The notes beneath the pieces were generated by a model, which worked only from the letters and a program-made list of their open reading frames with translations, did no database searches and was not told where the DNA came from. From NCBI GenBank assembly GCA_964648855.1, contig CAZYLT010000017.1, positions 14,502 through 46,501 on the forward strand: DNA of 32,000 nt, in the 5' to 3' direction. Position numbers and translations under genes: made by a program. The stretch comes from an uncultured archaeon. GTDB taxonomy: Archaea > Asgardarchaeota > Thorarchaeia > Thorarchaeales > Thorarchaeaceae. How positions within the stretch are numbered: position 1 is the first letter of the stretch; each line of letters begins with the position of its first letter. Shown here piece after piece: positions 4,824 to 21,437 of this stretch.

Positions 4824-5068
4824 ATTTCTCAACCCACTATAGACCTTTATGTGCACAAGAATACACATTGCAAACTCAAAGTGCCAGCAACAATTTTGTC
4901 GGTTTCCACATTTCTTCCTTTGCTCTCTTATTGGAGAATGCAACTATTTCATTCTTGTGTATTAGAGCTGTTTCTTCACCATACTAGGAGTATTGCCCCG
5001 CATAGAGTTAATAAACTTCGTTTGCCAGATATGATATATCTCTACTCACATATACGGAGGTTTCAAAA

Positions 5069-5635
5069 ATCAGATCATTTGGAAGTAAATTCCTTGGTTG
5101 GCTAGCAGCCGTCGCAATCGTACTTATCGCAGGATGGTTCCTGCTGCCGTCAGGGTATAACACGTTAGTTCTGTGGCTTGCGCCACAACTAGGAAACTAC
5201 ATTCGTCCGACTCTTGTTCTTGTTAACACACTACTAGTAGACCCACTCAATAACCTGCAGATGGTAGCCATTTGGGGTGTTGCGGGATTCATTGCTGGAG
5301 TGCTTGCTGGAACCAAGAAAGGGGCGTTTGCAGTGGGCCTATTAGCCTGGCTCACAATGATACTTATGCTTGTATTTCTGGTCTTTCAGCTATTTACAAC
5401 TGGGGTAGAACTTGGTACAATTCCGCCCATCCCGCCAGGTTCATCTATTGCAGATGTTTTGGGAATTCCACTAATTCAATCTGTAGTGGATGAGTTACTG
5501 CCGCTGATTGCGGGTAGCGGAGGAGCACCAGATATTAGCTCCCTTCTACAGCCATTGATAATTTGGTTCTTGACTCCCCCCATTGTTGTGATTGTCACAG
5601 GAATCATTGGCGCCACAGTGCGCCCAAAGGAGTGA
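5069..5635 (+). CDS. Hypothetical multi-pass membrane protein; probable ATC start (ORF track calls 5261)
   Basis: Frame open from TAA at 5012. Encodes the hydrophobic KFLGWLAAVAIVLIAGWFLL upstream of the ATG at 5261. GGAGG at 5056-5060 lies 8 nt before ATC at 5069. Confidence 0.7.
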   Translation: MRSFGSKFLGWLAAVAIVLIAGWFLLPSGYNTLVLWLAPQLGNYIRPTLVLVNTLLVDPLNNLQMVAIWGVAGFIAGVLAGTKKGAFAVGLLAWLTMILMLVFLVFQLFTTGVELGTIPPIPPGSSIADVLGIPLIQSVVDELLPLIAGSGGAPDISSLLQPLIIWFLTPPIVVIVTGIIGATVRPKE

Positions 5636-5642
5636 GAAAATA

Positions 5643-7280
5643 ATGAAAGTAAAGCACGCATTTACACTTATGTTCGTAGCGTTCATGGTTTTTGCACCAT
5701 TAACGGCAGCAGCGATGGAAGACAGCTTTGGTGTTGCACAGGGTGAGGAATTCAATCCTGAAGAACTCATTGGGAGGCTCCTTGAGGAAGGAGCTGAGGT
5801 ACTACTTACCAATATTGATGAAGACGGGGTACCCGGTGTCATTTATGGACAATTAGGGATCCCTTCAGATGACCTGGGCCTCACGGAAGATTTCTATGAT
5901 GGTTGTCTCGCAATGGCAATGATATCTACTCATGGAGAATTTCTAGATATTGTCTTTGATTTGATAGGCGGAAACCCATTCTCAGGAGAATCCTCCGGAG
6001 GCGAGTTTGCCACAGCACAGGATGGTGGTATGGGAAGTCCTGAGGAAATTCTAGAAATACTTGGAACCGAGTTTAATCTACTAATAACTGTGTATGCGAA
6101 TATGCCAGAAGCTGAGTCTCAGCAGAAGATGTCAGGCGTTGTCAACCACATGACAAGCACTTTCGGCTTCAGTTTGACACAACTACTGGCAATCAGGATC
6201 GATGAGAACTTGTTTCCACCAGACGCTGAGATTGAACTGCCCTTTGACTCTCTTGACCTGTTTATATATCAGGAGCTGAGCACGTTTGACATTGTAACAA
6301 ACGCAATGTTAAGTCAAATGGATGACTCTGGAATCCTTGGAGCGATGGACACCTCCCTCTTCACCGAGGCCAGAGCATCAGCCGCAGGGATGCTTGCTAT
6401 TCCTGACTTGGCTGAGCTGGTGAATTTCATCAATTCAACCTTCGAGGGCGCTGGAACTGCTCCCCCATCTTCTGGATTCGCTCTAGCTCAATTCCCAGAG
6501 AACCTAGAAGGCCCACTCGCTATAGCTGCAGTAGGGTACCTTGGTGAGCAAGTCTTGACATCAGAAAGCACCGAGCTGAATGTAGGCGCATTGGTTGGAG
6601 CAACAGGAACAATCTCTCCGTTAGATTCTGGACAGTCTCTTATTATTACGAACCTGCCTGAGAATGTGAATATCACATCTGTGACTCCATTTGTTGAGAA
6701 TCAAACCTTCTACGAAGCGAATGGTAGCACCGTCTTCTGGAATTCGACAGCACTCGGAGACCAGCCAGATTACCTCATTTCATTTGATGGTGGAGAATTC
6801 CCGCCACCGATTACTATTGAGCGAACTTTCTCACCTGAAACTGCCACAGCGGGAGGGTCCGTGGAGGTTACGGTCACCGTGACCAACGAAGGAACGGAAG
6901 CGATTTCCGATGTGTATCTGAATGACACAGGCTTATTGAGCTATTATAGCTCAGTTACTGTGACAGGCACAACAAGTGACACATTTGCGACTCTGAATGG
7001 TGGACAAAGCGAATCAATAATCTATCAGGTTGTATTCGAAAACGAAGGTCGGTACGGATTCCCAAAGGCTGCTGTCATGTATACATATGAGGGTGATAGC
7101 TACACAAAGACCACTCCTCGCGATGGTTATACCGTAGAACCAAACCCTGGCAATCTTGCAGCCCAGGCCATAGCTGATGGATGGCCCTATTCCGGTATTG
7201 CAGTAGGTGTGGTAGCACTTGTTGGAATCTATTCCATTGCGGGACTTGTCCGCGGTCGAGGCGACACATATCAAGTATAA
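5643..7280 (+). CDS. Acidic cell-surface glycoprotein: signal peptide, Ig-like (DUF11/CARDB-like) domain, C-terminal TM anchor
   Basis: MKVKHAFTLMFVAFMVFAPLTAAA signal peptide, ERTFSP..GGSVEVTVTVTNEG Ig-like motif, multiple N-x-S/T sequons (NST, NIT, NQT, NGS, NDT) and a C-terminal TM followed by RGRG. Confidence 0.75.
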   Translation: MKVKHAFTLMFVAFMVFAPLTAAAMEDSFGVAQGEEFNPEELIGRLLEEGAEVLLTNIDEDGVPGVIYGQLGIPSDDLGLTEDFYDGCLAMAMISTHGEFLDIVFDLIGGNPFSGESSGGEFATAQDGGMGSPEEILEILGTEFNLLITVYANMPEAESQQKMSGVVNHMTSTFGFSLTQLLAIRIDENLFPPDAEIELPFDSLDLFIYQELSTFDIVTNAMLSQMDDSGILGAMDTSLFTEARASAAGMLAIPDLAELVNFINSTFEGAGTAPPSSGFALAQFPENLEGPLAIAAVGYLGEQVLTSESTELNVGALVGATGTISPLDSGQSLIITNLPENVNITSVTPFVENQTFYEANGSTVFWNSTALGDQPDYLISFDGGEFPPPITIERTFSPETATAGGSVEVTVTVTNEGTEAISDVYLNDTGLLSYYSSVTVTGTTSDTFATLNGGQSESIIYQVVFENEGRYGFPKAAVMYTYEGDSYTKTTPRDGYTVEPNPGNLAAQAIADGWPYSGIAVGVVALVGIYSIAGLVRGRGDTYQV

Positions 7281-7285
7281 ACTGC

Positions 7286-7332
7286 TGATTTCCCGGACTA
7301 TGTCCGGGAGTCAACTCTTTCTTTTTTTCTTC
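7286..7332 (+). terminator. Hairpin plus T-rich tract after the surface-protein gene
   Basis: TCCCGGAC-TAT-GTCCGGGA (7291-7309) followed by CTCTTTCTTTTTTTCTT. Confidence 0.7.
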
Positions 7333-19928: not shown

Positions 19929-20716
19929 GCCTCCATCCATAGATTCAAGAATTTCTCTCTTTCTCTAGGAAACTTCTTCTGGTCGGCACACATCATCAAG
20001 AACTTTCCATCGTATCCTCGTTCTTTCAATTCTCGAAAAATGCTCTCAAAATCGATTGAGCCTTCTCCGATTGGCAAGTGTGTGTCATACCTTCTGGCTA
20101 ATTCTCTCGTTTCCTCGATTGAAACCTCTCTCTTTTCTCGTGTCTTCAGCACGTCGTGAATCATTTCTTGTCCGTTATTATCGTGAACGATAACCATCTC
20201 GATGTGGTCGAAAAAGGATTCTATAAGACCGAGAGCACGATTACGAGTAGCCATGATTTGCCCATGTCCAATGTCCAGGGCTATCTTCATATCTGGGTGT
20301 TCATCAAAGAGAAAGGTGAGTTCTGTATAGTAAAGTCCAAGTGTTTCAACACCAATGACGACATTGGAATTCTTAGCGGCCATGGATACGAGAGGCAGAG
20401 CCTCTAGAAATGTATCAATATCCTCATCTCGGTAGAAGAGTGTCGATAATGTACTATGAAACGACACAAGTTCTGCATTTATTTCCGCCCCAAGGTCGAT
20501 ATAGGGGACAATGCCGGTGGCTAGGTCCATGGGCTTCCATTCAGGATCACTAGGCAGATGTAATGTACATAAGACACCTGCCTCATTCAAGGTCTCTTTT
20601 GCCTTCTCAAAAGCAATGCTATAGTTCAAATCCATGCGTAAGTCGATAAAATCAGGCTCATGCTGCAGTGCCCACTCAATCTGTTCATTATCCCGTGCAA
20701 ACGTTCCTATTTGCAT
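19925..20716 (-). CDS. Sugar phosphate isomerase/epimerase / AP endonuclease 2 TIM-barrel family
   Basis: TLHLP, IGVET, ALDIGH, VHDN and HLPIGEGSIDF metal-binding motifs. Start set at MQIGTF. Confidence 0.85.
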   Translation of the reverse strand: MQIGTFARDNEQIEWALQHEPDFIDLRMDLNYSIAFEKAKETLNEAGVLCTLHLPSDPEWKPMDLATGIVPYIDLGAEINAELVSFHSTLSTLFYRDEDIDTFLEALPLVSMAAKNSNVVIGVETLGLYYTELTFLFDEHPDMKIALDIGHGQIMATRNRALGLIESFFDHIEMVIVHDNNGQEMIHDVLKTREKREVSIEETRELARRYDTHLPIGEGSIDFESIFRELKERGYDGKFLMMCADQKKFPREREKFLNLWMEA

Positions 20717-20856
20717 ATCATACAACCTTACTCAAGAAGCTTCATATCCTTCTTTTGTGGCTTTTGGTCTACAACTCGTTATACCCGTGGTCTTCCGCTG
20801 CGGACATGGAAATGCGTTAGACGCGCTAGCAAGAAAACCGCGATAGTTTTATCTTG

Positions 20857-20872
20857 CTGTGTCATGACACAG
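20857..20872. promoter_or_regulatory. Perfect 16-bp palindrome downstream of a TATA-like box in the divergent TIM-barrel/Rab promoter region
   Basis: CTGTGTCATGACACAG, with TTTTAT at 20847-20852. Confidence 0.45.
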
Positions 20873-20891
20873 ACCACGGAGAGTTTGAAGC

Positions 20892-21437
20892 CTGTCAGAT
20901 AGTGTTGCATACCTCTTCAAGGTCGTTTTTCTTGGAGAGGGCGGAGTTGGCAAAACTTCGCTCGTAGGTCGGTACGTGTACGACTCCTTCGAAGGAGATT
21001 ACTTGGCTACTATCGGTGCCGCCATGCATACAAAGCCAGTTCAGGTCGACGACACGCATGTGAAGCTCGTCATATGGGATATAGCAGGGCAAGATGACTT
21101 TGAGCAGTTGCGTAAGGCTTACTATCAGAACGCGTCAGGAGCCTTCTTCGTCTTTGATACAACACGCCCAGATTCCCTAGACAGGTTTGAAGAGTGGTTG
21201 GAAGCTCTCTACAGTGTGACTTCGGAGATACCAGTTGTGCTACTGGAGAATAAGGTTGACCTTGAGTCACAAATGGACTCCAATAGAGTTGAGGCCCTCT
21301 CTAAGAAATATGGATTCGAGCATATCAGAACCAGTGCGAAGGAAGACACCAACGTGGAGACCGCGTTTCTCAAAGTCACCAGTGAAATTCTGGAAAAAGC
21401 TCGATCTAAGAAGCCAGTGAAGCGGACAGCCCAATAA
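20892..21437 (+). CDS. Rab-like small GTPase 1; CTG start (ORF track calls 20976, which omits the P-loop)
   Basis: YLFKVVFLGEGGVGKTS (G1, upstream of the called start), TIG, WDIAGQ, YYQNA, NKVD and TSAK. Confidence 0.93.
   Translation: MSDSVAYLFKVVFLGEGGVGKTSLVGRYVYDSFEGDYLATIGAAMHTKPVQVDDTHVKLVIWDIAGQDDFEQLRKAYYQNASGAFFVFDTTRPDSLDRFEEWLEALYSVTSEIPVVLLENKVDLESQMDSNRVEALSKKYGFEHIRTSAKEDTNVETAFLKVTSEILEKARSKKPVKRTAQ

Follow-up and report, generated by a model that had tools for sequence, protein, structure and literature searches.

We analyzed a 32,000-nucleotide (nt) stretch of DNA, here called the window, from an uncultured archaeon of the Thorarchaeaceae (Asgardarchaeota; contig CAZYLT010000017.1 of assembly GCA_964648855.1). 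Four of its genes, encoding a conserved membrane protein, a lipoate-protein ligase (LplA), a MASE3 sensor histidine kinase and a Rab/Ras-like small GTPase, are very probably intact and would be translated from the near-cognate start codons AUC, AUC, CUG and CUG, respectively. Throughout, ATG, GTG and TTG are referred to as canonical starts, and codons one base away from ATG (CTG, ATT, ATC, ATA and ACG) as near-cognate. As an initial annotation of the sequence had claimed, each site has a Shine-Dalgarno (SD) motif 6–8 nt upstream, an in-frame stop, and no ATG, GTG or TTG before a protein-like N-terminus. The SD matches span 4–6 nt, and their spacing is the same as that of canonical starts, since canonical ATG starts in this genome have a GGAGG ending 7–9 nt upstream. 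For the GTPase, the membrane protein and the kinase, it is plain that no canonical start intervenes between the in-frame stop and the conserved N-terminus; for LplA this can be said only with respect to an FRFL strand conserved in orthologs. Ortholog comparison also bears out the proposal of the initial annotation that these codons are genuine SD-guided starts, kept across species and genera.

The case is built on what can be read directly, namely the anatomy of the sites, the conservation of the near-cognate codon together with its SD motif, its exchange with ATG, TTG or GTG in relatives, and the domain boundaries, which were taken from Pfam profile matches. The window (G000:C17:14502-46501) belongs to a metagenome-assembled genome (MAG) of 3.11 Mb in 62 contigs (G000). 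Relatives compared here are independent MAGs from different studies, labelled Candidatus Thorarchaeota; G001 denotes the sister species of G000, G004 a partial genome (1.85 Mb) from another genus, and G020 a genome from another Asgard family.

For the GTPase, the in-frame TGA two codons before the CTG means that no upstream start is possible. Pfam Ras positions 1–161 correspond to residues 10–167 counted from the CTG, and the first canonical codon, GTG 20976, is residue 29, past the P-loop. Of 12 genomes of the family, representing 10 genera, 11 have CTG at the aligned codon, which lies 13 positions ahead of the P-loop glycine, and the twelfth has TTG; CTA, CTC, CTT and TTA never occur there. 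As an internal control, no such constraint is seen on the leucine codon of YLFK, nine codons further on, which can be CTC, CTT, CTG, TTG or CTA. Nearly all orthologs retain a GGAG in their nucleotide sequence, mostly in the form TGGAGAGT, followed by a 7–8-nt spacer, and the sequence further upstream is unconserved. Moreover, five genomes have an in-frame stop 1–7 codons upstream and no canonical start. Directly downstream of this gene, at 21549-22106 of the window, lies a second Rab-like GTPase paralog that is ~48% identical and has a TTG start; the tandem pair is present in nearly all genomes of the family, each of which carries 20–50 Ras-like GTPase genes.

The membrane protein, which has no Pfam family match, is preceded by an in-frame TAA at 5012, and its next canonical start (ATG 5261) lies 64 codons downstream, inside the conserved protein. 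We aligned the start codon first in 14 genomes and then in ~57 Thorarchaeota species, finding ATT, ATA or ATC in ~40, ATG in ~14, ACG in 2–3 and GTG or TTG in a few, so that the aligned codon is always at most one base away from ATG. The GGAGG(T) is kept in the orthologs of these species. It often takes the form TAGGAGGT, which contains an in-frame TAG, and in the many species where this TAG lies within the SD motif an upstream start is impossible. The FGSKYFGWLA segment downstream of the start is conserved, and its serine codons alternate between AGY and TCN, which indicates that selection acts on the protein sequence.

The kinase has an in-frame TAA at 13717, and its first canonical start, GTG 13894, is residue 44. 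MASE3 positions 4–226 align from residue 35 counted from the CTG, and a protein begun at GTG 13894 would lose its first transmembrane helix and ~12 MASE3 positions. In G001, a TTG occupies exactly the aligned codon behind the same GGAGG, and more distant homologs have an ATG before the first membrane helix.

LplA is the case in which the ATC is not forced by the sequence alone, because a GTG at 12609, only 10 codons downstream, precedes the Pfam domain (LplA-B_cat position 1 aligns after it); the ortholog comparison does force the ATC. The aligned start, which lies 3–5 codons before a conserved F/W-R-F/L-L strand in relatives, is ATT in G001 and in a further genome, G008, and ATG, GTG or TTG in eleven others. 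The upstream in-frame stop is a TAG at 12543. With stop and start 1 nt apart, this is also the one site with termination-reinitiation spacing, and reinitiation by terminating ribosomes may therefore help here; the other three sites are intergenic and far from an upstream stop. The upstream radical-SAM gene (possibly lipoyl synthase-like) and LplA form a tightly coupled pair spanning 11600-13346, and the same arrangement is found in relatives.

An alternative is that the four genes begin at the next canonical codon (ATG 5261, GTG 12609, GTG 13894 and GTG 20976) and that the intervening stretch is an untranslated leader. These are the starts that gene callers pick, as in the 153-residue public record of the GTPase that begins at GTG 20976 (P0002), and an LplA begun at GTG 12609 would still carry its whole Pfam domain. 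Against this, such starts would cost the GTPase its P-loop, the membrane protein 64 conserved residues and the kinase its first helix; across genera, the supposed leaders show synonymous changes while the protein they encode is conserved, and GTG 12609 is itself not conserved, being GAA in G001. We regard downstream starts as very improbable.

Genes that only seem to lack a start could also be produced by assembly or sequencing error, through either an erroneous base in the initiation codon itself or a 1-nt indel following a short ATG frame upstream, and short out-of-frame ATG frames do occur just upstream of three sites (ATG 5031, 13731 and 20864). These frames are unconserved in relatives, and the near-cognate codons and SD motifs recur in dozens of independent MAGs. 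The initial annotation had named assembly error among the findings that would overturn its claim; the same codons and SD motifs in independent MAGs exclude both assembly error and a frameshift artefact, and we give this explanation almost no weight.

Recoding, in the form of a programmed frameshift from an upstream open reading frame (ORF) or of read-through of the upstream stop, has a precedent of sorts in this genome, where some other start-less frames can be aligned with their G004 orthologs immediately after a TGA that both genomes share. At the four sites, in contrast, the upstream stop varies among relatives in identity (TAA, TAG or TGA) and distance, the sequence before the SD motif is unconserved, and the conserved unit consists of SD motif, spacer and near-cognate codon. 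A signature of programmed frameshifting was likewise not found in the orthologs, where the upstream ATG frames are unconserved and only the SD motif and near-cognate codon are kept. The chance that recoding explains these genes appears negligible. Initiation at the near-cognate codons themselves is the reading we prefer, and the corresponding features are collected in Table 1.

Table 1. Coordinates of the near-cognate start sites and associated features (window positions).
Feature	Position	Strand	Details
SD motif GGAGGT	5056..5061	+	7 nt before ATC 5069
Conserved membrane protein gene, 188 aa	5069..5635	+	Start ATC 5069-5071
Radical-SAM gene	11600..12577	+	TAA stop 12575-12577, 1 nt before LplA start
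SD-like motif AGGTGGTGG	12564..12572	+	Inside 3′ end of upstream gene, 6 nt before ATC 12579
Lipoate-protein ligase (LplA-B_cat) gene	12579..13346	+	Start ATC 12579-12581
SD motif GGAGG	13753..13757	+	7 nt before CTG 13765; kept in G001
MASE3 sensor histidine kinase gene, 480 aa	13765..15207	+	Start CTG 13765-13767; MASE3 and HATPase_c domains
SD motif GGAGAG	20878..20883	+	8 nt before CTG 20892
In-frame TGA	20886..20888	+	Two codons before CTG 20892
Rab/Ras-like small GTPase gene, 181 aa	20892..21437	+	Start CTG 20892-20894

In the mechanism that we propose from these arrangements, a strong SD duplex with the 3′ end of 16S rRNA would set the P site of the 30S subunit on the near-cognate codon, which can pair with the CAU anticodon of the initiator tRNA at two of three positions. 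Met-tRNAi would then begin the protein with methionine, probably less efficiently than at AUG, and the strength of the SD duplex would make up for the weak codon-anticodon pairing.

We next consider how frequent such starts are. For each codon, an SD-register test counted the occurrences that stand at the correct distance behind a 5-nt SD motif and precede the first canonical start by >12 codons, with the same count in three wrong registers as control. In G000, CTG was found 10 times in register versus 1, 1 and 2 times in the wrong registers (p ~1.5e-6), and ATC 7 times versus 2, 2 and 5. Taken together, CTG, ATH (ATT, ATC or ATA) and ACG gave 23 occurrences against a control of 9.7, where canonical starts with such an SD motif number 446; the partial genome G004 gave 26 against 10.3 for all near-cognate codons. 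TTG is an unusually common start in G000, accounting for ~17–21% of inferred starts, with GTG at 8–10%.

Comparison of 1129 G000–G004 ortholog pairs provides a second estimate. In 26 G000 and 30 G004 genes, conservation begins 12 codons or more ahead of the first canonical start. Because chance alone supplies a canonical codon about every 18 codons, roughly half of the real cases escape this criterion. On inspection, ~7–9 of the 26 genes in G000 and ~9–10 of the 30 in G004 have credible near-cognate starts; the remainder are spurious extensions, overlaps with upstream genes and probable TGA read-through. Extension of BLAST alignments upstream of the first canonical start yields many false positives below ~12 codons: SD motifs are read as Gly-Gly and align by chance, an upstream gene may overlap in a different frame, and some cases reflect TGA read-through. 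For two G000 genes, one on the minus strand of C12 (58239-59226 in reverse-complement coordinates) and one on C7 (82981-83710, likewise in reverse-complement coordinates), the alignment with the G004 ortholog begins immediately behind a TGA that is in frame in both genomes; selenocysteine insertion or read-through seems to fit them better than the lack of a start, and ARAGORN predicts tRNA-SeC candidates.

From these counts we estimate that near-cognate starts are used in ~1–3% of genes genome-wide. The initial annotation had extrapolated a rate of 4 in ~35 genes (11%) from the window; this is too high, and four in the ~30 window genes is a local excess. Supported CTG-started genes of G000 beyond the window encode PriL, LpdA, the GTP cyclohydrolase FolE2, a P-type ATPase, a radical-SAM enzyme and an ABC ATPase; a GNAT acetyltransferase with an ATT start is also individually supported, and a topoisomerase (Toprim) with a CTG start is a weaker case. 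LpdA, FolE2, the N domain of the P-type ATPase and Toprim fit their Pfam profiles from position 1–3 only if started at the CTG. This set shows no bias toward signalling genes, for which the initial annotation had envisaged a possible regulatory layer. Near-cognate starts appear, on the comparative evidence, to be general in Thorarchaeota, involving CUG, AUU, AUC, AUA and occasionally ACG, some of them kept across genera.

Several other candidates were rejected. In the window, a fifth candidate (2835-3365) proved to start at an ordinary TTG (2925); C41:5066 represents a fragment of a gene, its Pfam match starting at profile position 148; an ATA candidate at C4:145313 has an in-frame ATG four codons upstream; and for an ATT-started GTPase at C12:52098-52628 an ATG 7 codons further on is a plausible start. 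An expectation-maximization model that allowed all 61 codons as starts was not identifiable, placing spurious weight on AAA and GAA, partly from starts of the form 'AAA ATC' or 'AAA ATA'. A model that admitted one extra codon at a time returned 10–130 spurious 'starts' for any codon and was rejected as an estimate of the rate.

The initial annotation had further attributed this behavior to the lineage, and that the lineage is special in this respect is unproven: 400 kb of the 1.4-Mb genome of another Asgard family (G020:C1:1-400000; loci L249-L268) give a similar excess, with 9 near-cognate codons in register versus 2.7 in the control, a sample too small to decide lineage specificity. ACG occurs three times in register in this segment and not at all in the three control registers, a hint of ACG starts beyond Thorarchaeota.

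Several points weigh against the reading of near-cognate codons as functional starts. Besides the intact Pfam domain that LplA would keep from its GTG, unrestricted start-choice models could not separate near-cognate codons from ordinary ones, and the codons aligned to a partner's canonical start include 21 near-cognates where ~15 are expected, a weak excess. The SD motifs of near-cognate starts are unusually strong, which speaks for such starts: 9 of 12 have a contiguous match of at least 5 nt, whereas among homology-validated starts the share is 34% for ATG, 36% for TTG and 19% for GTG. Some of the near-cognate cases were, however, identified by way of their SD motif, which biases this comparison in part. 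Finally, the CTG of the kinase, which has one close ortholog, and that of LpdA could be recent, mildly harmful changes from TTG and not a selected state.

This last point underlies a further alternative, in which the kinase and perhaps LplA have acquired recent start mutations that lower or abolish expression, so that the genes are decaying or down-tuned. In its favor, the CTG codons of the kinase and of LpdA are specific to G000. LpdA, a dihydrolipoamide dehydrogenase at G000:C47:5099-6523 (ortholog locus L248), has TTG at the aligned position in G001 behind the same SD motif. A search of 31 genomes (E<=1e-80) found no LpdA ortholog outside the genus; being confined to it, LpdA is probably an accessory or acquired gene. 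Against decay stand the intact reading frames and retained SD motifs, and the long stability of such codons in the GTPase, the membrane protein and the aIF1 genes of relatives, which implies that the machinery can use them. We consider decay or down-tuning improbable, and initiation at the near-cognate codons remains the interpretation that we favor.

In Sulfolobus and Pyrococcus, aIF1 rejects non-AUG or wrong complexes (PMC4705826, PMC6237735). The initial annotation had raised the possibility of fidelity changes in the initiation machinery. None was seen in the initiator tRNA (C4:158328-158441, intron-bearing), which is standard, with A1:U72, a G:C-rich anticodon stem and a CAU anticodon; introns are present in most tRNA genes of G000. 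aIF1 (SUI1) does have family-specific features, to which we assign no meaning: members of the family carry ACGGAAKHGH where others have ACGGT.K, together with a C-terminal extension, IDWSFxxGRR, and have lower Pfam scores (57–71 bits versus mostly 72–86 in other Asgard families). The gene is single-copy in all 31 genomes searched, lying at C6 ~70020-70330 in G000 and at loci L135-L154 in relatives. Among 18 Thorarchaeaceae genomes its start codon is GTG in 10 (including G000), CTG in 7 and perhaps ATT in the remaining one, but never ATG; three of the seven CTG codons are preceded by a stop one codon before them. In the other Asgard families the aIF1 gene mostly starts at ATG or GTG, with three apparently having ATA, CTG or ATT.

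In having a weak start, aIF1 resembles infC in bacteria and eIF1 in eukaryotes, whose weak start sites provide negative feedback (PMC4705826). That aIF1 might regulate itself through its own weak start we can only infer from this likeness. On this basis we tentatively suggest, while considering it rather doubtful, that Thorarchaeota, and probably Asgard archaea widely, operate under a relaxed regime in which any single-mismatch codon behind a strong SD motif can serve as the sole start. aIF1 would set the stringency homeostatically, weak-start genes would co-vary with aIF1 activity, and the arrangement would be a prokaryotic forerunner of the eIF1-controlled non-AUG initiation of eukaryotes. 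In such a regime the aIF1 mRNA is itself GUG- or CUG-started, and the weak-start set would take in Rab-like GTPases and sensor kinases as well as enzymes of replication and metabolism.

Proteomes of Asgard archaea derive almost entirely from gene callers that permit ATG, GTG and TTG only. The systematic truncation of annotated proteins proposed by the initial annotation is apparent in the public data, where the GTPase of the window is recorded without its P-loop, and homologs are also wrongly extended. Among the best 120 public GTPase homologs, the P-loop is absent from 8, 21 begin fewer than 12 residues ahead of it, 52 carry an extension of >30 residues, and only 17 have the expected 12–16 residues before it. 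At a rate of ~1–3%, dozens of proteins per genome would be truncated, wrongly extended or missed, including eukaryote-like small GTPases that are used in arguments about the origin of eukaryotes. The results also bear on the evolution of start-codon stringency between archaea and eukaryotes, which share aIF1/eIF1, and the natural SD-CUG and SD-AUC leaders offer concrete material for archaeal in vitro systems.

Reviews of archaeal translation give AUG, GUG and UUG as the only start codons (PMC4705826), a picture that conserved CUG, AUH and ACG starts, including those of aIF1 in relatives, would widen. Across 36 prokaryote groups, 3 of 61,358 ancestral AUG starts were reported to have switched to CUG or AUU (PMC5622118); published baselines of this kind are much lower than the rate estimated here, and they rest on annotations that rarely permit near-cognate codons. 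No paper describing near-cognate initiation in Thorarchaeota or other Asgard archaea came up in our literature search. Events of this type are known in both bacteria and eukaryotes; what seems not to have been reported before is how often they occur in an Asgard lineage and how long they have been conserved there as the sole start of main proteins.

NCBI translation table 11 lists CTG, ATT, ATC and ATA as starts. In bacteria, the AUU start of E. coli infC and its dependence on IF3 have been described (PMC4705826), and the Thorarchaeota cases resemble such starts in having an SD-led mRNA, a single mismatch to AUG, presumed reading by the initiator tRNA and an expected weak efficiency. They differ in their frequency (~1–3% of genes versus a handful per genome in model bacteria), in that the archaeal fidelity factor is aIF1 rather than IF3, and in that several are kept across genera. 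With respect to NUG starts, CUG is simply the fourth first-position variant and interchanges here with UUG at the same site, whereas AUU, AUC and AUA are third-position mismatches and ACG is a second-position mismatch. Likeness to termination-reinitiation coupling is limited to LplA, with its SD-like motif inside the upstream gene.

The closest parallel in codon usage, initiation at CUG, ACG and AUU in eukaryotes, involves the same codon set, and Asgard aIF1 is homologous to eIF1, which sets stringency there; in Sulfolobus, aIF1 destabilizes non-AUG complexes (PMC4705826, PMC6237735). That CUG is the best-known eukaryotic non-AUG start, as the initial annotation remarked, is correct, yet it is not evidence for the sites described here. 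Unlike eukaryotic non-AUG initiation, which relies on scanning and Kozak context, the Thorarchaeota sites are led by SD pairing. Furthermore, no logic of upstream ORFs or alternative isoforms is apparent at these sites, where the near-cognate codons would act as the sole starts of the main proteins.

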